Positions 32,718-43,800 of a stretch of DNA of 64,000 nucleotides are shown here, one piece after another. Location: NCBI GenBank assembly GCA_046496795.1, contig JAWOGM010000054.1, forward strand, positions 558 through 64,557. The letters are read 5' to 3'. Source of the DNA: Thermoplasmatota archaeon (lineage in GTDB: Archaea; Thermoplasmatota; E2; DHVEG-1). How positions within the stretch are numbered: position 1 is the stretch's first letter; the number at the start of each line of letters is the position of its first letter. The notes under the pieces were generated by a model that worked only from the letters and a program-made list of their open reading frames with translations, did not search any database and was not told where the DNA came from. Both the position numbers and the translations under genes were made by a program.

Positions 32718-33038
32718 TTAATATGATTGAATTATTTTTTTAAACACAGGGTCTTTTATTGTTTTTTGTATTTCTATAAGAAACTCTTTCCAGGATATGG
32801 TATTCCAGGACCATTGTATCATTTCTTTTTTATGTAGTGATAGTATTTTTAGAAAACTTTGCCAGGAATACCCCATTTCCTTTAAGGGTGTTGACCATCC
32901 TGCTTCTTTCCAAAGATAACTAGGTAGTCGATTGCCAAACCATAGGATGATGCCATCTATATCCCAACTTTTATCTGTTTTTTGTTGGTTTGTTTGTTTT
33001 TTAAGCAGTAATGGTTCTGGTGGTATGCTTAGATTCAT
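32718..33038 (-). CDS. Trp-rich small protein of unknown function, immediately upstream of the B12-rSAM gene
   Basis: 106 aa with 8 Trp ('ILWFGNRLPSYLWKEAGWS...QWSWNTISWKEF'). A 15-nt gap separates it from the rSAM start on the same strand. Confidence 0.35.
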   Translation of the reverse strand: MNLSIPPEPLLLKKQTNQQKTDKSWDIDGIILWFGNRLPSYLWKEAGWSTPLKEMGYSWQSFLKILSLHKKEMIQWSWNTISWKEFLIEIQKTIKDPVFKKIIQSY

Positions 33039-33249
33039 TATTTAACCCCTTAGTACTATGTAGTTGGTATATGGTATTGAAAACTAGTTTTTATGTTTTT
33101 ATAAAAAAAATGAAGCACAATACTAATTACTTGTTTTACTCTACCACGGAATCAATAAGAGAGTTGTATGTTAGATTAATAACTAATATGTAACAGTGAA
33201 TTTTTTGTGCAATAGCAAGTATATGTACAAAGCCATTATTGTAGAAAAC

Positions 33250-33299
33250 TATATAAAAAGAATTTTCTATATACGTATTAATACGTGTTAAAACGTATT
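33250..33299 (+). promoter_or_regulatory. Archaeal promoter: TATA box (ctatataaaaag) followed by a perfect 14-bp palindrome ACGTATTAATACGT (33273-33286) and a third ACGTAT half-site (33294-33299)
   Basis: Read directly from the sequence. The TATA lies ~50 nt upstream of the ATG at 33313. The palindrome sits where a repressor would block TFB/RNAP or the TSS. Confidence 0.4.
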
Positions 33300-33312
33300 T
33301 GGATGTGAATAT

Positions 33313-33552
33313 ATGAAAAAAGGAATAACCATAGGATTTTCAATGCTGATACTTGCTATAATCCTCTGGATAGCATATGGATTATACATCGGCTTTGAAG
33401 AAATATTACAAGCCCTTGATATCATCACAGGACTCTTAACAGGATTGGTAGTGGTAGGAATTATTATATTATTTCTGTCAATCATTTTCGAACAACGTGA
33501 TGATACAAAAAAAATGAAACAAAAAATAAACAAGGAGGATTTAGAACCATGA
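33313..33552 (+). CDS. Small two-TM membrane protein
   Basis: Two hydrophobic helices and a charged C-terminus. Its stop overlaps the YbjQ start (ATGA). Confidence 0.4.
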   Translation: MKKGITIGFSMLILAIILWIAYGLYIGFEEILQALDIITGLLTGLVVVGIIILFLSIIFEQRDDTKKMKQKINKEDLEP

Positions 33553-33863
33553 TACTAACAACAACCGACTTTATAACAGGGAAAGAAATCAAAGAAATAT
33601 TAGGCCTTGTCAGAGGAAACACCATACAGGCAAAAAGCATTGGCAAAGATTTCAAAGCAGGACTACGCCACATTGCCGGTGGAGAAATAAAAGAATATAC
33701 AAGTATGCTTGCAGAATCACGAGAAATCGCCTTAAAAAGAATGGAAGAAAAAGCACAGAAAATCAATGCAGATGCCGTCATCAACATACGATTTATGACC
33801 TCATCAATTATGGGTGGAGCAGCAGAAATACTTGCCTATGGAACAGCAGTAAAACTAAAGTGA
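33549..33863 (+). CDS. YbjQ/UPF0145 (DUF74) family protein, copy A
   Basis: Whole-length resemblance to the UPF0145 family: 'ITGKEIKEILGLVRGNTIQAKSIGKDF...ADAVINIRF...GAAEILAYGTAVKL'. Confidence 0.8.
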   Translation: MILTTTDFITGKEIKEILGLVRGNTIQAKSIGKDFKAGLRHIAGGEIKEYTSMLAESREIALKRMEEKAQKINADAVINIRFMTSSIMGGAAEILAYGTAVKLK

Positions 33864-33967
33864 ACCAATGAACATTAAAAACTATTCCTTCATCATTTTT
33901 TTGGGGATTGCTTCCCCTTATTTTTGGAGTGGCATCTCTATTGAATATTGAATAAAGGTGAGTTAAC

Positions 33968-35053
33968 ATGAAAATCGAAAAAAAATTACGCTGCCCAAAT
34001 TGTAAAAAAGTATCCAAATTCTTAGGTAATCCTGGAGAGATACTAGAAATTACGTGCCCACATTGCAGCACAAAAGGAAAAATAGCGCTTGAAGACCCTC
34101 TGCTATCAACAAAAAATACTATAATTTCCGTAAAAAACATCTCAAAAAAATACAAAGATGTCCTAGCCGTACATAATGTTTCTTTTACTATAAACAAAGG
34201 AGAGATCTTTGGCTATATTGGACCAAATGGAGCGGGAAAGACCACGACTATAAAAATGATGATAGGGCTATTACATCAAACAAGCGGAGAGATATCTATC
34301 AATGGATTACAGATGCCAAAACAAAAAGAACAAGCACATCGGTTTATTGGCTATATGCCACAGTATGCAGGATTTCAACAGTGGCGAACAGTAAACCAGG
34401 CTCTCTTGACATTTGGGAAGTTATCAGGTGTGGAAAATAATGTGCTTCAACAACGCATTGATGAAGCGTTACATCTACTAGGTCTTATGAAATATAAAAA
34501 CAAAAAAATCTCAAAATTATCTGGAGGGACAATTCAAAAAGTTGGAATTGCTCAAGCATTACTTCACAATCCAAGTCTTTTAATTCTAGACGAACCCTTA
34601 AGTGGTCTTGATCCAGATAGTAGGTATCAAGTGAAAAAGATACTAAAACAATTAAGTAATAATGGAACAACAGTCTTTTTTTCCTCCCATATTTTGTCAG
34701 ATTTACAAGACATAGCATCAAAAATCTGTATTATTGATTGGGGGAAAATGATAAAAATCGGATCGTTAAACGATTTAAAAGTAGAATTTTCAAAGGAGAA
34801 TCAAATAGAAATTATATTTTCAAAAAAAACTGATGAATACAAGAACATACAAAAAATCACTGCAGTCAAAGAAATCATAGAAATTTCAAATGAAAGATAT
34901 ATCATACAACTTGACAAAAATGCAGATTCAGATGCCGTTACTAATGAAATAATTACAATGCTTATGGAAAATAACTGTATGATTAGAAGTATAACACCAG
35001 TAAGTCCTTCACTAGATGAAATGTATCAATATTATCTGAGAAAAGGAGGGTAA
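33968..35053 (+). CDS. ABC transporter ATP-binding protein with an N-terminal zinc-ribbon extension
   Basis: 'CPNCKK...CPHCSTKGK' zinc ribbon, then Walker A 'GPNGAGKTT', the 'LSGGTIQKV' signature, Walker B 'LILDEP', and a C-terminal extension. Confidence 0.8.
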   Translation: MKIEKKLRCPNCKKVSKFLGNPGEILEITCPHCSTKGKIALEDPLLSTKNTIISVKNISKKYKDVLAVHNVSFTINKGEIFGYIGPNGAGKTTTIKMMIGLLHQTSGEISINGLQMPKQKEQAHRFIGYMPQYAGFQQWRTVNQALLTFGKLSGVENNVLQQRIDEALHLLGLMKYKNKKISKLSGGTIQKVGIAQALLHNPSLLILDEPLSGLDPDSRYQVKKILKQLSNNGTTVFFSSHILSDLQDIASKICIIDWGKMIKIGSLNDLKVEFSKENQIEIIFSKKTDEYKNIQKITAVKEIIEISNERYIIQLDKNADSDAVTNEIITMLMENNCMIRSITPVSPSLDEMYQYYLRKGG

Positions 35054-35057
35054 ATCA

Positions 35058-35717
35058 ATGAGTTTTTCGTTAATATTAAAAGATGAGTTCAAAGGGTTTT
35101 ACAAATCAAAAGTTATGATATTTTTATGGACTGGACTACCACTATTAGCAGTCATCCTTCATCTATTTATAACTGATGATTCCATCCCAATGTCTACCAT
35201 CACCGCAATAGTTGTATCAAACATTGGTGGATTACTCGCTGCGGTAATGATAACAGTAAACATTATTAATGAAAAAGATACCAGAGTTTTTGACTTATTT
35301 TTAATAAGACCACTGAAACGCTGGCATCTCCTGCTCTCAAAATTTTTAGCGGTTTTTATCTGCGTATCAATAGCAGGTCTTCTCGCAGTAAGCGTTGGCA
35401 TAGGAGTTGATTTTTTTCAATCAGCCCTACCCTTTGAACAAATTCTTCGAAATGTCATTGATCCGTTCATCATGACCTTATCAATCATTGCAATATCTAG
35501 TGCTACAGGCATACTCTTTGGCGTGATAGCTCCATCAATTCTCGTTGGAGTAATACTAGTGATATTTATAGGAAATTACATATCCTCTATACCTTCAATT
35601 ATCCCTCTTGTACTTGAAATAAATAATCCTGTTAATTATGTGTTAGCAGTAGGACTACTCTGTACCATTGTTTTATTAGGTTTAGGAGTCTATTTATTTA
35701 ACAAAAAGGAGTTTTAA
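35058..35717 (+). CDS. ABC-2-type transporter permease (6 TM)
   Basis: Six hydrophobic helices. Immediately downstream of the ATPase; its stop overlaps the next start. Confidence 0.5.
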   Translation: MSFSLILKDEFKGFYKSKVMIFLWTGLPLLAVILHLFITDDSIPMSTITAIVVSNIGGLLAAVMITVNIINEKDTRVFDLFLIRPLKRWHLLLSKFLAVFICVSIAGLLAVSVGIGVDFFQSALPFEQILRNVIDPFIMTLSIIAISSATGILFGVIAPSILVGVILVIFIGNYISSIPSIIPLVLEINNPVNYVLAVGLLCTIVLLGLGVYLFNKKEF

Positions 35718-35932
35718 TGAAAAAAGTAACCATAACATTGAGTAATGAGACGTGGAAATGGTGGAAAAACAACCCATGGATAAATCTCTCACAACTCACC
35801 GAACGAGAACTTAATAGAATACAAGCCTTAGAAGAACGAGTCCATGGAATATGTCCCACTTGTGGAAATGCAAAACTTCGCTTTAATGGAAAAATATATC
35901 GATGCTCAAAATGTGGATATGAATATAAATAA
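35717..35932 (+). CDS. Small zinc-ribbon protein (possible RHH-like N-terminus)
   Basis: 'CPTCGNAKLRFNGKIYRCSKCGYEYK' is a C4 zinc ribbon. The N-terminal 'KVTITLSNETWKWW' is beta-strand-like. Confidence 0.5.
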   Translation: MKKVTITLSNETWKWWKNNPWINLSQLTERELNRIQALEERVHGICPTCGNAKLRFNGKIYRCSKCGYEYK

Positions 35933-36006
35933 AAAATAATCAACAATACCTTAAAAAATAAAAAAATTCAAAAATTAATAAAAGAAAACAGAAAAGAGGC
36001 ATACCT

Positions 36007-36321
36007 ATGATGGTAACAACAACAGAACAAATCCCTGGTAGAGATGTAAAAGAAGTATTAGGAGTCGTCTTTGGAAGTTGCGTACAAATGAAACATATCG
36101 GAAAAGACATACGAGCAGCAGGAAGAACACTCATTGGAGGAGAAGCTAAAGGATATACAGAACTCATGGAAGAATCACGCAGAACAGCAATGCAACGGAT
36201 GATAGATGATGCTAAAAAACTTGGTGCTGACGCTGTCATTGGTATGAGATATGCAACAGCACAAACCATGCATGGTGCCGCAGAGCTCATCGCATTTGGA
36301 ACAGCAGTGAAAACACACTAA
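36007..36321 (+). CDS. YbjQ/UPF0145 (DUF74) family protein, copy B
   Basis: Paralog of 33549..33863: 'IPGRDVKEVLGVVFGSCVQMKHIGKDI...ADAVIGMRY...GAAELIAFGTAVK'. Confidence 0.8.
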   Translation: MMVTTTEQIPGRDVKEVLGVVFGSCVQMKHIGKDIRAAGRTLIGGEAKGYTELMEESRRTAMQRMIDDAKKLGADAVIGMRYATAQTMHGAAELIAFGTAVKTH

Positions 36322-36336
36322 ACAAAAGGTGTAAGC

Positions 36337-37047
36337 ATGCCAGTTGTTGAAGTAAAAAATCTTTTAAAAACATTTGGATCAACACAAGCAGTCAACAAAA
36401 TCTCATTTACCGTTAACAAAGGAGAAATCTTTGGCCTTATTGGACCAAACGGTGCCGGAAAAACAACAGCCTTACGAATCATTTCAACCCTTCTTCAAAT
36501 AACTTCAGGGGACGTAACTATTTTAGGATATGACGCGAAAAAAAAACCAGACCAAATCCGAAAAGTTATTAGCTACCTACCCGAGGATGCAGGAGCATAT
36601 AAAAATTTAACAGGAAGAACATATCTGCGGTTCATCGCCTGTTTTTTTGAAAAAAAACCAGAAGACATAATATCTAGAGGAATAACCATTGCAGATCTTG
36701 GCGACAGAATTGATGATAAAGTAGACACCTACAGTAAAGGAATGAAACGGCGATTATTAGTAGCTAGAGCATTAATGATACAACCAAAACTAGCAATTCT
36801 AGATGAACCGACATCAGGATTGGATGTCATAAACGCCCAAGAAATACGAAAAATAATAAAAAATACCGCAAAAAGCGGGGCTGCTGTTCTTCTTTCCTCT
36901 CACAATATGCTTGAAGTAGAATTCCTCTGCGATAGAATTGCACTTATCGCACAGGGAAGAATCGTTGAAGAAGGAGCGCCAAATAAACTCTTAGACCGTT
37001 ACAATGCAAATAACATTGAAGAAGTGTTTGTGAAGGCGGTTTCATGA
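36337..37047 (+). CDS. ABC transporter ATP-binding protein
   Basis: Walker A 'GPNGAGKTT', signature 'YSKGMKRRL', Walker B 'AILDEPTSGLD', H-loop 'SSHNM'. Confidence 0.85.
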   Translation: MPVVEVKNLLKTFGSTQAVNKISFTVNKGEIFGLIGPNGAGKTTALRIISTLLQITSGDVTILGYDAKKKPDQIRKVISYLPEDAGAYKNLTGRTYLRFIACFFEKKPEDIISRGITIADLGDRIDDKVDTYSKGMKRRLLVARALMIQPKLAILDEPTSGLDVINAQEIRKIIKNTAKSGAAVLLSSHNMLEVEFLCDRIALIAQGRIVEEGAPNKLLDRYNANNIEEVFVKAVS

Positions 37048-38327
37048 GCGCACTTACAAATATTTTTAAAAAAGAATTAAAAGAACTTTTAACACCTGCA
37101 GCAATATTACCCATAGTAGTACTTGCTATATTATTTGGCTCAATTGGTAGTTCAATGGAAGGAATTCAATCGGGACTTGAAGAAAAACCAATAATAGGAG
37201 TCATCAATGAAGATAGTGGTAATTTTTCTAAATTAGCAAATTCAATAATAAATAATCACTCCAGAGTCATTTATAACTCAACTGATAGTGCTGATAAACA
37301 ACAAGCCCTTGAACAAATAACAGCTGAGCAGGGATTGGCCTTACTTATTATTCCGCAAAATTTCTCTAAAAATATTTACAATAATACTCAAGGCCAAATC
37401 GATATCTATTGGATAATGAGAGGAGCAGGAATTTTTGATACCATATCCTCAGAAACAGTGCAAGCAATTATTTCAATAATTAACAGAGAAATATCAAGAT
37501 ATCTCATTGATCAAAATACAACAATTAACGCAAGTATTGTGTTATCGCCCACCGTTAAAACCGATACAACCTACTTTAAAGACAGAGTAATTCATCTCCC
37601 TCCAACAACAATTTCAGGGATGCTCTCATCGCAATCACTTCTTATCCCAATTGTGATTATGATGATCATAATAATGGCAGGAAGCATGGTCATCTCATCA
37701 ATGGCCTTGGAAAAAGAGAATAAAACACTTGAAACACTATTGACCCTACCCATAAAACGAACAAGTATTGTAACTGGAAAAATTGCTGCAAGTGCATTAA
37801 TAGGACTGTTATTTGCAGTGGTTTATATGATTGGGATGAGTCGATACTTTCAAGGAATGCAATTTTCAGATTCAATAAATCTTGCAGATTTTAATTTAGC
37901 GTTAACTTCGTCAGATTTTTTGTTAATAGGAATATCTCTTTTTATCACCCTGATCGCAGCGTTATCTCTTTGTATGCTTCTTGGAACCATGGCTAAAAAT
38001 TACAAAAGCGCACAAACACTAACATTTCCCATCACCATGCTTGCAATGATTCCCATGTTTATTACTATGTTTACTGATTTTGACACCTTACCCCTGGCTT
38101 TAAAAACCGTTATTTATGCAATACCGTTTTCTCATCCCATGATTGCCCCAAAAGCATTAATATTTAATGATTATAGCCTTGTAATTAGCGGAATTATCTA
38201 CGTATCACTATTTGCTCTTGTAACTATTTTTATCGTTGTATGGTTGTTTAAAACAGATAGAATACTTACCGGCAGTACAAAAAAAAATTGGAAAAATATA
38301 TTTACAAAAAGAACAAAAGAAGAGTAA
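37044..38327 (+). CDS. ABC-2 family exporter permease with a large extracytoplasmic loop
   Basis: N-terminal TM helix, a ~150-aa loop, then 5 TM helices. Start overlaps the ATPase stop. Confidence 0.6.
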   Translation: MSALTNIFKKELKELLTPAAILPIVVLAILFGSIGSSMEGIQSGLEEKPIIGVINEDSGNFSKLANSIINNHSRVIYNSTDSADKQQALEQITAEQGLALLIIPQNFSKNIYNNTQGQIDIYWIMRGAGIFDTISSETVQAIISIINREISRYLIDQNTTINASIVLSPTVKTDTTYFKDRVIHLPPTTISGMLSSQSLLIPIVIMMIIIMAGSMVISSMALEKENKTLETLLTLPIKRTSIVTGKIAASALIGLLFAVVYMIGMSRYFQGMQFSDSINLADFNLALTSSDFLLIGISLFITLIAALSLCMLLGTMAKNYKSAQTLTFPITMLAMIPMFITMFTDFDTLPLALKTVIYAIPFSHPMIAPKALIFNDYSLVISGIIYVSLFALVTIFIVVWLFKTDRILTGSTKKNWKNIFTKRTKEE

Positions 38328-38459
38328 TATACCAAAACAATAAAATAAATTATTTGATTATTACATAGAGGAACATATATATAATTTTCTATGGAAAAGT
38401 TTAAATAAAAATTCAACATAATGATATATATAAAAAAAAATTTAGGGAGGAAATAAAAC

Positions 38460-39587
38460 ATGAAAAATATGTTAGTGAAGAGTTTACTCATTGCAATTGT
38501 GCTCTTATTACTTGGAGTGAGTATTCTTCCAACTATCAACGCAACAATAAATGAGGCTAGTGCTATAAACAAACAACCCCAACCACAGCTATTAGATATA
38601 TTTTGGGAAGAAAACTTCGATTCCTACGATCTTGGCAGCTCAATGCATGAGCAAGGTGGCTGGAAAGGCTGGGATAATAACCCTGCATGGACTGCCTATG
38701 TCACTGATGAGCAATCTCGCAGTAACCCACATTCAGTTGATATTGAAGGTGATGCAGATATTGTCCGTGAATTTTCAGGATTAACATCTGGACAGTGGAA
38801 CCTTACAGCATGGGTCTACGTACCATCAGACCTATTTGGATTATCGTATTTTATTTTACTCAGCGACTATACCGATGGAGCAGGTCAAGCAAATGAGTGG
38901 GCAGTTCAAGTACGATTTGATCCAGATCAAGGAATAGTTGAAGCTGAACATGGTGGCCCAAGTCTGCCATTGATAACTGATCAATGGGTTGAACTAAGTG
39001 TTCTTATAGATCTTGATGTCGACTGGTTTGAATTCTACTATAATGGCGACCTATTGGAAGAAAAAGCTTGGACTGCAGGTCCAAACAACGCAGGAACAGG
39101 AAAGCTTAACATCGGCGCAATAGACCTATTTGCAAACTCTGCAACAAGTGTTTTTTACGACGATATAACCTTAGAAGGAGAAGCAACAGAACCTTCTCTC
39201 ACATGCGAAGGAAGCCTGAGCTGGACTGATGTGGAACCTGGTGCTACTGTTACAGGAACCTTTACCATTGCAAATATTGGAGCCCCCGGATCTGATCTTA
39301 ACTGGGAGATACAAAACTTTCCAACCTGGGGAACTTGGACATTCACACCAAACAGTGGAACAGGCTTAAAGCCAGAAGATGGAGAACTCACCATTGAAGT
39401 GGAAGTTGTCGCTCCAATTGATAAAAATGAAAATTTCACAGGATCAGTAAGAGTCGTCAATAGTGATAATACCAATAACTATTGTGATATTGATGTAGCG
39501 CTTGCAACACCAGTAAGTTATTACAGGCCGCTACTGCAACGATTTATCAGCAGACATCCCATATTAGCACAACTCCTTGGATTGTAA
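38460..39587 (+). CDS. Secreted protein with a CARDB-like beta-sandwich and a conserved C-terminal tail '...HPILAQLLGL'
   Basis: Signal peptide 'MKNMLVKSLLIAIVLLLLGVSILP'. The C-terminal ~110 aa are paralogous to 40170..40700 ('WTDVEPGATVTGTFTIANIGAPGSDLNWEI...TGLKPEDGELTIEVEV'). Confidence 0.5.
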   Translation: MKNMLVKSLLIAIVLLLLGVSILPTINATINEASAINKQPQPQLLDIFWEENFDSYDLGSSMHEQGGWKGWDNNPAWTAYVTDEQSRSNPHSVDIEGDADIVREFSGLTSGQWNLTAWVYVPSDLFGLSYFILLSDYTDGAGQANEWAVQVRFDPDQGIVEAEHGGPSLPLITDQWVELSVLIDLDVDWFEFYYNGDLLEEKAWTAGPNNAGTGKLNIGAIDLFANSATSVFYDDITLEGEATEPSLTCEGSLSWTDVEPGATVTGTFTIANIGAPGSDLNWEIQNFPTWGTWTFTPNSGTGLKPEDGELTIEVEVVAPIDKNENFTGSVRVVNSDNTNNYCDIDVALATPVSYYRPLLQRFISRHPILAQLLGL

Positions 39588-39806: not shown

Positions 39807-40175
39807 ATGAAGCAGAAATCAATATACGATAACATGACTAAATCAGAAAAAATCGTTGCACAATTTTTGAAAGATCTTGGAATCTTTTGGTCATATGAAA
39901 AACCTATATATGTATGGGACAGAAATAAAAGACCGCGAGTTTGGACTCCCGATTTTTTCCTTAACCAGTTTAGTATCTATGTTGAGGTTTGCGGGTCAGA
40001 AGATTTTGATTATGAATATAGAAGAATAACGTACAAAGAGAATGGATATAATGTTATATTTTTACACCTGTATAAAGAGACAAATAGATGGAAAGAACAT
40101 TTTTTCCAGTATATTTCAAAAATATCAAATTATAGAAATGAGTGGTTAAACAGATTACGTATGAAATATTCATAA
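39807..40175 (+). CDS. DUF559 (Vsr-like endonuclease fold) domain protein
   Basis: 'NMTKSEKIVAQFLKDLGIFWSYEKPI...TPDFFLNQFSIYVEVCGSED...ENGYNVIFLHLYKE' parallels the DUF559 pattern (MTxAEkxLW...YIvDF...IEvDG...G..VlRf). Confidence 0.6.
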   Translation: MKQKSIYDNMTKSEKIVAQFLKDLGIFWSYEKPIYVWDRNKRPRVWTPDFFLNQFSIYVEVCGSEDFDYEYRRITYKENGYNVIFLHLYKETNRWKEHFFQYISKISNYRNEWLNRLRMKYS

Positions 40176-40700
40176 TCCGACTAGTTGTCTTAGTATCGGA
40201 AATACATTTGGAAACTGCTCTGAAATTAATAAAAGAAATTTATATATATTTATTTCAGTATTTTTCTGAATCTTTGTTGGAGTTATTAAGCTTAATTCAA
40301 AAATATGAAAATCTTCTGGATTATCACTATTAATAATTTTCACCTCTCCACCAAACTCTGTAAGATGTTCATATGGCGCATCGACCTCAACTACAACTGT
40401 CAATGTTTCATCCTCAGGTTTCAATCCAGTTCCATCATCAGGATCAAACCTCCATTCACCCCATTCAGGCCATGAATCTACTTCCCAATTAAGTTCAGAA
40501 TTCGGATCGCCGATGTTTTTCACAATAAAACTATCCTCGACTGTTGCACCAGGTATTACATCAACCCACCCTATCTCCCCATCGCAATCCAAATCAGGAA
40601 CAGGATCACCTATTATTTTATATGAATTACATAACGGCATAAAAACTAAAAACAACAATAATACTGCAACCATTAACGGAAATATTGATTTTCTAAGCAT
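40170..40700 (-). CDS. Secreted protein with a CARDB-like domain and the C-terminal tail '...FPILRQLVGL'. The true start is the internal Met at 40700, not the tracked 40928.
   Basis: The signal peptide 'MLRKSIFPLMVAVLLLFLVFMPLC' begins at residue 77 of the tracked ORF; the upstream 76 residues are AT-rich read-through. It is a paralog of the C-terminal half of 38460..39587. Confidence 0.5.
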   Translation of the reverse strand: MLRKSIFPLMVAVLLLFLVFMPLCNSYKIIGDPVPDLDCDGEIGWVDVIPGATVEDSFIVKNIGDPNSELNWEVDSWPEWGEWRFDPDDGTGLKPEDETLTVVVEVDAPYEHLTEFGGEVKIINSDNPEDFHIFELSLITPTKIQKNTEINIYKFLLLISEQFPNVFPILRQLVGL

Positions 40701-40881
40701 GTTCTTATTTCCCCTTATACATAAAGAATATAGAAAATGGTATTTATAAATTTCGCAAATTTTGTAAACAATTATTACATGAAAGACAAAATATTGAAAA
40801 AAAATAATAAATATTATAAACATTATGATTATCTCACTACAAGTAACATTGAATATAATTCGTAGGACGAAGGGAGAAAAC

Positions 40882-43800
40882 ATGAATAATTCTTGTTTAA
40901 ATAAATACCTAAAGGCTAGTATTCTCATAGGCAGCTTAATAATATTGATTTTTATGTTGAATTCAGCACAAGCAACAGAAATTGAAATGGATTTTTCATT
41001 TGAAGAACCTGATATAACCGAACTTACAATATCAGATGAAACATATCATGATGTTAAGATTGATGGTTTGAAAACAACAGGTGACACTGGTTTACCTTTG
41101 TTGCCGGTAAAAACAGTTAAAATTCTTCTACCACAAAGAGGAGTTTTGGAGTCGATAGATGTAGTTTTAGATGGTAATACATCAATGGGCCAGAATTATA
41201 ATGTTACACTTGGGAAAGAATCTGTTAATTTGTCTGGTGGGCAAAACGGGTCAAATGAGTCATATTTTAATGAATCAATACCATATCCAACGACTTCTTA
41301 TGATAAAATTGGTGTTTTTCATTTCAGGGGGCATTCCTTTTTGATAATTAATCTTCATCCATGTTATTACATTGGTGAAACCGGGGAGATATATTACTAT
41401 GAAAATATTTCTCTTACAGTAACAACAAATGAAGTGGGTAATGTTAGTAAATTTTTTAGAAATACAACAACTGATGAAGAATTGATAAAGGAGAAGGTAG
41501 ATAATTATGATTGTATATCCAGTTATGATACTAAGGTGGGTTTTTCAAAAAACTCAGATCTCGTTGATCCTCAAGATTCTTATGATTATGTCATTATAAC
41601 AAAAAAGAAGTTTAAAAATGCTATTTGTCCACAGGGTTTCAGATTCTGGTATACGTTTCAGGATTTAGCAGATTATAAAAATAGTACAGGTACACAAACA
41701 ATAGTTGTAGCTCTTGAGGACATTTTAAATGAACCTGAATATCATTGGGATGGTGAATTTGGCGATGGTTTAAATGAAAGTATTTTTAATGACACGCAAT
41801 GTCATATCAGAAATTTTATTAAGGATGCATTTCAAAATTGGGGTATTGAATACGTTCTTATTGGAGGAGATCATAATAATACTTTAACTGATTGTGATAT
41901 CGTTCCAGCAAGATTCTTTAAATATACAGAAATTCATATCTCAAAACCTTCTGACATTTATTATTCATGTCTTGACGGCAATTATAATATGGATTCTGAT
42001 GGAGATTTTGGAGAAAAGGGCGATGGAGGTTTTGGTAATGGAGATAACTGGGAGCCAAAATTAGGTTCTGGATATTGTTATGCAGAGGCAGATTCAAGCC
42101 AATATGGAGGTGGGTTTGATGTTGGCTTATTTTCAAAAGAATTAGATATGTCCAATTTTTCTAATGTGTATTTAAATTTTACATGGAGCTTCCGTTCTAA
42201 TTATAACGCCCATATAGAAGTTAATGTTTATTCCGGGGGAAATGATTCTGAAAACAAAGAAGTAACTCTGTGGGAAAAGAGTACTGGTTCTGAAATTCCT
42301 GATCCTATGGTATTGAATTTTAATCCTAGTATATATACTGATCCATCTGAAGTTTATATTGAATTTAATTATACAGATAGTGGTAGTTCCAGTTCAGATT
42401 CAATGAATATCGATGATATAAAAATAACCGGTTTTGATGGCACTAATTGGACGGTGATTTTAAATGAGAGTTTCGAAGGAGACCCTTTTCCTCCGGATGG
42501 TTGGGATCAAAAAAAATATAGTGGAGAAAAAGAATGGGCAATTGAATATTATCAAATCTATCCTGATTTATTTGCAGAAGTTTATATCGGGCGGGCAAGT
42601 GTTGGTAATAGGTTTGAAGTAAACAATTTTGTAACAAAAACACTATCTTATCAAAAAGCGGATGCTCATGATCCATATATTAATAAAACATTGTTACTTG
42701 GTGCAAGGTTAAATAAAAAAACTTGGGGTGGTGATTATAAGGATGAAATCGTAGATAAATGTGATAACGTCTTCAATTCGACAGGTATTCCAAGTGAAAA
42801 TTATACCATTGATAAATTATATGATCGTGATTTATCTCCTGATTATTGGCCTAAAAAGGAGCTAAGACGTAGACTTAATAATGGAGTTAATATAATAAAT
42901 TATATGGGTCATGGAGATTGGGATGGAATTGGTACAAAAGATTATGATGGTGACTTTTCATGGATAGATAAATTTAATATTGCAGATGTTTGTTTACTTC
43001 ATAATAATAAATATTTCTTTATGTATTCTATGGGTTGTTTAAATGGTAAATTTCATTGTTGGTCATCACTTCCTATATTCAATATTACACAATGTGACAG
43101 TTTTGCTGAGTTCCTTACTGTTAGAACAAAGCATGGTGCATATGCGACTATTATGAATACAGGCTCTGGAACATTTATTCCAAGCTCGACCAACTCTTCA
43201 TCCCAATATTTTGATAGGTTTTTTTTCAATGCAACATTTGGAGGTGCTGAAATAAAAGAATTAGGTAGAGCAAATCAGGAATCAAAAGAAAACACCTTAC
43301 CTCTAATATACGATTTAAATGTTTTTTATGGTTTAACTCTTTTTGGTGATCCTCAGATTTCTCTAAAAATTCCAGTTGAAAATAATCCCCCAAATAAACC
43401 TGATACACCGACAGGATATGAAGATCCTGATCATAAATTATTCTGGACTTATTATACTAGTACAACTGATCCAGAAGGAGATCAGCTTTATTATAAATGG
43501 GAATGGGATGATGTTGAAGGTTTGGTATGGTGGATTCCATTTTTACCTTATGATTCAGGTGATACTGCTAGTATGATACGTCCATGGTTAATTCCAGGGA
43601 CTCATAAAGTTAGAGTTAAAGCTATGGATATTTATGGTGCAGAAAGTAATTGGTCTGATCCTTATTACATGTCTGTATCATTTGATCTTAATATGCAAAT
43701 AAACCCTAATCCTGCTGTTGTTGGTGAGACAATTGATTTCAATGCAGAATCAGAATATGGTGAAACATATACCTGGGATTTTGGAGGAAGCAAAGGAATA

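Follow-up and report, generated by a model that had tools for sequence, protein, structure and literature searches.

ATP-binding cassette (ABC) exporters of the ABC-2 or type V class, exemplified by the DrrAB daunorubicin pump and the NatAB Na+ exporter of B. subtilis, combine a separate ATPase with a permease of six transmembrane (TM) segments. The UPF0145/YbjQ family of small proteins is widespread, with 4987 cluster representatives at E≤0.001 across bacteria and archaea, and has three solved structures (1VR4, 2GTC and 1Y2I) with five chains in each entry; pentamers of the YbjQ fold have also been reported (PMC4092069). Full-text literature searches returned no functional study of the family. 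In three Acinetobacter species, two YbjQ-family genes directly follow the gene for the outer-membrane factor of the resistance-nodulation-division (RND) pump adeIJK/adeXYZ (PMC10132057). Here we analyze a block of eight genes within a 64,000-nucleotide stretch of the metagenome-assembled genome of a sediment-dwelling Thermoplasmatota archaeon (contig JAWOGM010000054.1; the whole stretch is called the window), in which two YbjQ paralogs, YbjQ-A and YbjQ-B, are each followed by an ABC ATPase and a permease. An initial reading of the sequence, hereafter the original prediction, had taken the block for two tandem YbjQ-ABC efflux modules and had supposed that such a coupling was undescribed; on the latter point the searches agree, having found no paper that describes it. 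Comparison with related loci leads us to favor an ABC-2 exporter operon specific to one clade, in which YbjQ forms a dispensable accessory module, YbjQ and pump being functionally coupled, a reading to which we give about an even chance.

All eight open reading frames (ORFs) of the block are present in the ORF list of the window, lie on the + strand and span 33313-38327, and the Pfam and NCBIfam matches agree with the gene labels of the original prediction. The genes, together with the remnant of a further gene, tm63, are as follows.

33313..33552, + strand: tm79, 79 residues, two hydropathy-predicted TM segments and a charged C-terminal tail (..EQRDDTKKMKQKINKEDLEP)
33549..33863, + strand: YbjQ-A, 104-residue UPF0145/YbjQ protein (PF01906, 131.6 bits against a cut-off of 23, E=1.9e-38)
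33868..33951, + strand: tm63 remnant, 27 codons, recognized by DNA alignment with the relatives L009 and L003
33968..35053, + strand: AtpA, 361-residue ABC ATPase (ABC_tran 8e-33, DrrA1-3_C 4.6e-7)
35058..35717, + strand: PermA, 219-residue ABC-2-like permease with ~6 TM segments
35717..35932, + strand: zn71, 71 residues with a C-terminal Zn ribbon, CPxCG...CxKCGY
36007..36321, + strand: YbjQ-B, 104-residue YbjQ paralog (PF01906, 120.2 bits against a cut-off of 23, E=7e-35)
36337..37047, + strand: AtpB, 236-residue ABC ATPase (ABC_tran 2e-29)
37044..38327, + strand: PermB, 427-residue ABC-2 permease (ABC2_membrane_3, PF12698, 133.2 bits against 31.6, E=1.6e-38)

Successive junctions measure -4, 104, 4, -1, 74, 15 and -4 bp; the 104-bp interval after YbjQ-A contains the tm63 remnant. 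The stop codon of tm79 and the start codon of YbjQ-A overlap as ATGA. Judged by this packing and by the arrangement in relatives, transcription of the block as one operon is plausible. A terminator-like hairpin at 33903-33917 is weak evidence for a transcript break because it falls inside the tm63 remnant, in sequence that L003 and L009 conserve as coding, and a scan for sigma-70 promoters, a model not applicable to archaea, gave fewer matches than in shuffled sequence. The two YbjQ paralogs are 51% identical to each other and the two ATPases 34%; tblastn detected no further YbjQ genes or ABC ATPases in the 64-kb window.

The AtpB-PermB pair appears to be an exporter of the ABC-2/type V class, similar to DrrAB and NatAB. 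The catalytic motifs GPNGAGKT, ILDEP and SSH are intact in the translations of both ATPases, with the signature LSGGT in AtpA and SKGM in AtpB; in the latter the Walker A motif reads GPNGAGKT, the signature YSKGMKRRL, the Walker B motif LAILDEP and the H-loop SSHNM. Both ATPases score best against the drrA subfamily model TIGR01188 (AtpA 1e-67, AtpB 1.5e-66, each below the cut-off), and their best PDB matches are ABCA1/3/4, NosF and Rv1218c. None of the NCBIfam equivalogs, among them DrrA, NatA, GldA and NodI, reaches its cut-off (for example, drrA 228 against 312 and GldA 209 against 402). PermB consists of TM1, an extracytoplasmic domain of ~165 residues (~residues 35-198) and then five TM segments; the large loop after TM1 is typical of the family and matches PDB entry 3CNI, a 'putative ABC type-2 transporter', with E=4.7e-14. 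As in other exporters of this kind, the permease gene overlaps that of the ATPase and the block lacks a gene for a solute-binding protein; from this lack and the family assignment, outward transport is predicted. AtpB orthologs are 69-82% identical. For PermA the best Pfam match is PF12698 at 28.2 bits against a cut-off of 31.6, with ABC2_membrane_3/4 both below their gathering scores; it accompanies AtpA in every relative that has AtpA. The block differs from DrrAB and NatAB in the presence of YbjQ, 2-TM and Zn-ribbon genes, in the CxxC...CxxC ribbon at the N-terminus of AtpA (Zn_ribbon_4, E=6e-6 over residues 1-51; the ribbon itself occupies ~residues 1-45), and in the SKGM signature of AtpB, which stands in place of LSGGQ. 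We know of no DrrAB or NatAB operon with YbjQ, 2-TM or Zn-ribbon genes, and none was described in the literature searched.

The evidence for a link between YbjQ-B and the pump comes from a PermB alignment scan of metagenome contigs, chosen to avoid anchoring on YbjQ, which recovered 80 loci with permeases 56-76% identical. In 59 of the 66 loci whose upstream sequence is long enough, YbjQ-B immediately precedes AtpB across a gap of 12-47 bp (median 20), and the same YbjQ-B-AtpB-PermB adjacency is present in six GTDB species representatives and two complete genomes. The gene that follows PermB in the window occupies that position in none of the 48 assessable loci, and the upstream neighbors of the block differ among the window and the complete genomes L001 (CP070724) and L002 (CP070751). 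Because the downstream gene of the window is never retained beside PermB, the block, conserved while its surroundings are not, has the look of a conserved unit rather than of general synteny. Insertions into the block are confined to one slot, and none of them separates YbjQ-B from AtpB.

The order of genes in the block was compared in L001, L002, the metagenome near relatives L003-L010 and the GTDB species representatives L011-L016. The common order is tm79 - YbjQ-A - tm63 - (slot) - zn71 - zn63 - YbjQ-B - AtpB - PermB. The -4 bp overlap of tm79 and YbjQ-A is present in every clade locus examined, and in the relatives the junctions zn71/zn63 and zn63/YbjQ-B are often, and AtpB/PermB mostly, of the same -4 bp type. 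An intact tm63, a 2-TM gene of ~63 residues, directly follows YbjQ-A in L001, L002, L003, L009, L012, L013, L015 and L016. In L002 the slot is empty and everything from tm79 through the permease gene is packed together, with 10 bp between tm63 and zn71, which is what a single operon would look like. The zn63 gene encodes a Zn ribbon of ~58-63 residues (CPRCG...CKDCGY) and separates zn71 from YbjQ-B in 38 of 43 related loci. The window departs from the common order twice. Its tm63 has been shortened by a 108-bp in-frame deletion relative to its closest relatives L003 and L009, and zn63 is missing, as it is from the nearest relatives, so that the interval from zn71 to YbjQ-B (35933-36006) is 74 bp. 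The tm63 remnant, which retains a single hydrophobic segment, might still encode a micro-protein.

The content of the slot was counted in the 35 permease-anchored metagenome loci in which YbjQ-A and zn71 are both present.

14/35 loci: lipoprotein-like alpha/beta-hydrolase of ~450 residues, DUF3887 plus S9/S33-type (e.g. L001:8525-9871)
11/35 loci: nothing
5/35 loci: YhfC intramembrane metalloprotease, PF10086 E=4.6e-33 (L107:3185-3949, L128:936-1706, L151:4737-5507, L163:742-1512, L169:4696-5466)
5/35 loci: AtpA-PermA

Every kind of slot cargo is membrane- or envelope-located. Because the slot is more frequently empty or occupied by a hydrolase or a YhfC protease, AtpA-PermA (module A, also found in L015 and in the closest relatives of the window) is an accessory cassette in a variable slot and not the partner of YbjQ-A, whose conserved neighbors are two small membrane proteins, tm79 and tm63. 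The duplicated YbjQ+ABC module of the original prediction is thus better seen as an accident of slot content in the lineage of the window. The case calls for some caution, since only comparison with relatives shows one of the two sets to be slot cargo: adjacent gene sets of similar appearance are not necessarily a duplicated module. In three of the complete-genome or GTDB relatives, PermB is broken up or shortened, apparently by a frameshift or internal stop (L002:9972-11084, L012:8038-9332, L015:5846-7299), which could reflect assembly error or pseudogenization of the pump in some lineages. L001 also carries a Peptidase_C25; gingipain-like peptidases of this kind occur in MBG-D/Thermoprofundales, to which the clade might, as a guess, belong.

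Outside the clade the picture is different. A GTDB scan with a 12-sequence YbjQ alignment yielded at least 590 confirmed relatives, and the best 80 were taken, of which 6 belong to the clade and 74 do not; the latter, 56-71% identical to YbjQ-A, are spread over many phyla of bacteria and archaea. An ABC ATPase is encoded within ~6 kb of YbjQ in 8 of these 74 loci. Only one of them has an ABC gene that is both adjacent and co-directional (L061, an ABC-FtsX fusion protein) and one has an adjacent divergent ABC gene. This divergent case, in a Hadarchaeota metagenome-assembled genome (MAG; L030:1349-3991), comprises a DrrA-like ATPase with the C-terminal domain and an ABC-2 permease, transcribed away from a YbjQ + 2-TM pair ~100 bp distant. 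It is a second, independent co-location of ABC-2 and YbjQ genes, and one case in 74 is within chance expectation. The density of ABC ATPases around non-clade YbjQ genes, 9 per 706 kb or 1 per 78 kb, is taken to be ordinary genome density by comparison with E. coli, which has ~1 per 58 kb. A Pfam census of 68 downstream neighbors found no dominant family (SmpB 4/68, ABC_tran 3/68), and the binomial P for at least 3 of 68 ABC_tran neighbors is 0.16-0.33 at a background of 2-3%. Recurrent YbjQ-ABC adjacency above background across unrelated lineages was not seen among the 74 non-clade loci. The linkage of the original prediction does therefore recur beyond this genome, but only inside one clade, and YbjQ-ABC coupling would be a feature of that clade and not a general rule for YbjQ. 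The locus does not establish a general YbjQ-ABC system; what it offers is a testable handle, a clade that keeps a YbjQ paralog 12-47 bp upstream of an exporter in ~90% of loci.

Several points weigh against functional coupling of YbjQ and pump. Seven of the 66 loci (L115, L125, L131, L139, L142, L145 and L149) keep AtpB-PermB without a YbjQ gene in the 3-6 kb of upstream sequence at hand. In L115, L125, L142 and L149 the AtpB-PermB pair stands alone and the upstream genes are unlike those of the usual block; in L131, L139 and L145 it is immediately preceded by AtpA-PermA, with a decayed zn71 fragment between the two ABC modules of L131 and L139. A neighbor-joining tree of AtpB+PermB, which is midpoint-rooted, crude and without support values, places six of the seven in one group and L149 in a second, both amid YbjQ-bearing loci, and this suggests at least two losses of YbjQ. 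Conservation of the block is furthermore limited to a single clade, with permease orthologs 56-76% identical, and shared ancestry could explain part of it. The search pattern of the GTDB scan, [LI]AYGTAVK[LF], and the ranking of its matches favor YbjQ-A-like sequences, so that the sample represents these and leaves distant YbjQ subfamilies outside. Finally, the symmetry of a YbjQ pentamer is not obviously matched by that of an ABC-2 transporter dimer.

Because these seven loci keep the transporter without YbjQ, YbjQ is probably dispensable for the pump. The pump appears to be a self-sufficient unit, with YbjQ-B and zn71 as an accessory that has been lost as a set. A need for YbjQ in every locus with the transporter does not agree with these loci, three of which have AtpA-PermA as well.

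The same observations can be taken to mean that the YbjQ modules and the exporter are unrelated in function, and that they are ancestral neighbors, still co-directional, whose adjacency is meaningless. The absence of linkage outside the clade, the persistence of the transporter without YbjQ and the insertion of unrelated cargo genes within the block would all be expected, and a gap separates the YbjQ-B and AtpB genes, whereas the pairs tm79/YbjQ-A and AtpB/PermB are coupled by overlap. It is harder to explain in this way why the short YbjQ-B-AtpB gap has been kept in nine-tenths of the loci while the permeases diverged to 56-76% identity and flanking synteny was fully lost, or why insertions enter one slot and spare the YbjQ-B/AtpB junction. 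The decay of zn71 along with the loss of YbjQ-B in L131 and L139 also implies that the small genes act as one unit attached to the pump operon. We think a purely passive adjacency unlikely.

YbjQ also has other candidate partners, which occur more widely than the pump linkage. Outside the clade, many YbjQ genes have an overlapping ORF of 63-90 residues ahead of them, with two TM segments and a charged tail beginning ..ER..D/E.K.., and a hidden Markov model (HMM) of this tm79 type was built from ten such ORFs and searched against 4277 six-frame ORFs. Every match adjoins YbjQ or is a tandem second copy of a gene that does. A tm79-type gene directly adjoins YbjQ in ~20 of the 74 non-clade loci; 12 of these loci did not serve as HMM seeds, and five loci have two tandem copies. 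The lineages include Methanosarcinales, Methanophagales, Diapherotrites, Aenigmatarchaeota, Altiarchaeota (DPANN archaea among them), Hadarchaeota, Planctomycetota, Halanaerobium (Halanaerobiales) and Bipolaricaulota/Acetothermia; examples from among L018-L089 are L018:5753-5998, L020:5753-5998, L023:5784-6020 and L030:3773-3991. In the Pfam scan no family reaches its cut-off with tm79 of the window, and no Pfam family covers the tm79-type proteins.

Natural fusions point in the same direction. Among cluster representatives, P0156, P0219 and P0201 are 2TM-YbjQ fusions, P0201 having the B-type FGSCV motif, and P0242, P0265, P0228, P0204 and P0239 are Zn-ribbon-YbjQ fusions. Most other N-terminal extensions of YbjQ cluster representatives look like miscalled starts, and P0193, in which YbjQ is joined to a piece of an ABC ATPase, has the look of a frameshift or a chimera; neither was counted. 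Because of the 2-TM neighbors outside the clade and the natural fusions, both kinds of small protein that flank YbjQ in the window appear to have independent links with YbjQ domains elsewhere. Proteins whose genes are translationally coupled or fused usually form a physical complex. This broader association of YbjQ, by pairing or by fusion, with Zn ribbons and a small 2-TM protein would place the family at the membrane and provides a second testable handle.

The two YbjQ proteins of the window share with the rest of the family their length of ~104 residues, the C-terminal GTAVK motif and Pfam matches far over the cut-off, which cover the full PF01906 profile (positions 1-103); both also match the solved pentamers, YbjQ-B aligning with 1VR4/2GTC (E=4e-12) and 1Y2I (E=6e-10) over its full length. 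They differ in being two diverged paralogs within one exporter operon, in having dedicated small partner genes (2-TM for A, Zn ribbon for B) and in a Cys of YbjQ-B that is invariant in the clade (Cys25, 56/56 orthologs) and absent from the other family members aligned. YbjQ-A, which is without any Cys, is the highly conserved paralog, with at least 83% identity in all of the best 120 relatives among the matches listed. YbjQ-B is clade-specific: the sole full-length representative among 50%-identity clusters that is more than 60% identical is P0123 (86%), the other close ones being a fragment of 71 residues (80%) and a sequence that matches only in part (61%). Its neighbor zn71 is likewise clade-specific, with only 41 clusters, all at least 66% identical, in a database of 5.8 billion proteins.

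Tandem YbjQ proteins with two to five domains per chain also exist (P0121, 627 residues; P0122, 460 residues; P0124, P0125 and P0133), and their composition suggests a high-GC or eukaryote-like source. P0121 has five matched YbjQ stretches, which fits a pentameric ring in a single polypeptide, and P0122 has four. In a Methanosarcinales MAG (L018:6001-6797) a tm79-like gene is followed by two tandem YbjQ genes, the second with an insertion of ~25 residues; this seems to be another lineage with an in-place duplication of YbjQ.

From these features one could construct an autonomous membrane device in which five tm79 proteins, with 10 TM helices between them, are capped by a YbjQ-A pentamer to form a small channel or a mechanical or chemical sensor, an idea that we consider improbable. 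The operon would then be an envelope-stress or self-protection island, and the exporters, hydrolase and YhfC protease would be parallel effectors and not partners of YbjQ, which we hold to be just as improbable. Such an architecture recalls the 2-TM pentamers MscL or CorA, and it accords with the pentameric state of the solved YbjQ homologs and of the reported YbjQ fold (PMC4092069), with the tandem proteins P0121 and P0122, with the wide distribution and translational coupling of the 2TM-YbjQ pair, with the single-chain 2TM-YbjQ fusions and with the envelope location of all slot cargo. The reasoning is, however, purely architectural; tm79 has no detectable similarity to any channel family in Pfam or NCBIfam, and for ~70% of the YbjQ genes sampled no 2-TM neighbor could be detected.

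It is possible, if on balance unlikely, that YbjQ is the cytoplasmic pentameric head of a small membrane device whose ancestral partner is a tm79-type protein, its gene overlapping that of YbjQ or fused with it; in this clade the device, together with a Cys-bearing paralog associated with Zn ribbons, would have been wired to an ABC-2 exporter as a sensor or gate. If true, this would be the first functional context for the YbjQ family.

For the favored coupling of YbjQ to the exporter, we infer a model from the gene content, the conservation, the limits of the linkage and the fusions. In this model, tm79-YbjQ-A(-tm63) is an old module of two genes that couples translation of a cytoplasmic YbjQ to that of a small 2-TM protein, and the products may form a membrane-tethered YbjQ complex. 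The zn71-(zn63)-YbjQ-B genes would be a clade-specific module of small Zn-ribbon proteins and a Cys-bearing YbjQ, presumably forming a soluble complex. AtpB-PermB would be a half-transporter pair with a large extracytoplasmic domain, expected to pump its substrate out of the membrane or the cytoplasm. Between the tm79-YbjQ-A and zn71-YbjQ-B units, a recombination-prone slot may collect envelope-acting cargo, which in the lineage of the window would be a second ABC-2 exporter and elsewhere the lipoprotein alpha/beta-hydrolase or the YhfC protease. The YbjQ modules would most likely be a non-essential cytoplasmic and membrane-proximal accessory to the exporter, acting as sensor, regulator or ligand buffer, and are probably not a core exporter subunit.

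The view that the block holds two duplicated YbjQ+ABC efflux modules, with YbjQ as the substrate-binding or chaperone subunit, probably for heavy metal, of a resistance pump is very unlikely: it can draw on the Pfam label of PF01906 ('putative heavy-metal-binding'), on the position of each YbjQ gene before an ABC ATPase in the window, on the invariance of Cys25 in YbjQ-B and on a weak match of both YbjQ copies (E~3e-3, below the cut-off) to the Methanococcus selenium-binding protein family TIGR03884, whose single-Cys pentameric protein shares the YbjQ fold (PMC4092069), but AtpA-PermA follows YbjQ-A in only 5 of 35 related loci, the four ABC genes occur together without YbjQ in L131, L139 and L145, YbjQ-A lacks Cys, and YbjQ genes show no general enrichment for ABC neighbors. 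The metal efflux or resistance theme of the original prediction also fails to find its expected company. Pfam and NCBIfam scans of the eight proteins revealed no metal regulator, metal pump family or metal-binding motif, neither YbjQ has a CxxC or His-rich motif, and Rfam gave no match at E≤1, and no riboswitch, over 32900-38600. Cys25 of YbjQ-B is the only candidate metal-ligand residue and would be a reasonable mutagenesis target, no more. A thiamin phosphate synthase activity has been credited to 'YbjQ' (PMC7084401). We set this function aside as an apparent confusion of YbjQ with YjbQ. The activity is presumably that of the unrelated YjbQ family, and the confusion of names could spread into annotations.

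Other described systems resemble the block in part. The Acinetobacter adeIJK/adeXYZ loci share with it a tandem YbjQ pair beside a multi-component efflux pump, conserved across species of one genus; they differ in that the pump is RND and not ABC-2, the hosts are bacterial, the YbjQ genes are downstream of the pump and no functional link is reported (PMC10132057). PermB aligns with positions 4-412 of the 636 positions of NF041647, a fusion of an ABC permease and a CPBP intramembrane protease, but its 116 bits are far below the cut-off of 435. The five relatives with a YhfC metalloprotease in the same operon are reminiscent of immunity-type pairs of ABC-2 transporter and intramembrane protease, whereas the block in the window has no protease domain or gene, and no peptide precursor gene was identified. 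A PADLOC search for anti-phage defence systems gave only generic ABC/AAA similarity for both ATPases and a marginal match of the zn71 Zn ribbon to Cas12f (E=8e-4), with no matches for the YbjQ, permease or tm79 proteins.

The conserved N-terminal half of zn71 reads KVTITL..W.WWK.N.WINLSQL.E.EL in ortholog alignments, and its ribbon matches those of TFS4, L37ae and RPA12. An N-terminal ribbon-helix-helix fold, and with it a role as regulator, was suspected but not confirmed, the only Pfam match being to CcdA with E=0.04 in one ortholog. A mediocre AlphaFold2 model (predicted local distance difference test score of 70) has two helices and the ribbon, of which Foldseek and a PDB profile search matched the ribbon only.

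Downstream of the block, the proteins encoded at 38460-39587 (+) and 40170-40928 (-) share a C-terminal region of ~140 residues with 45% identity, ending in ..P(I)L(A/R)QL(L/V)GL. The 375-residue member of the pair has an N-terminal hydrophobic segment, and its gene follows PermB only in the closest relatives. The shared C-terminal region may be a lineage-specific surface-protein domain or sorting signal.

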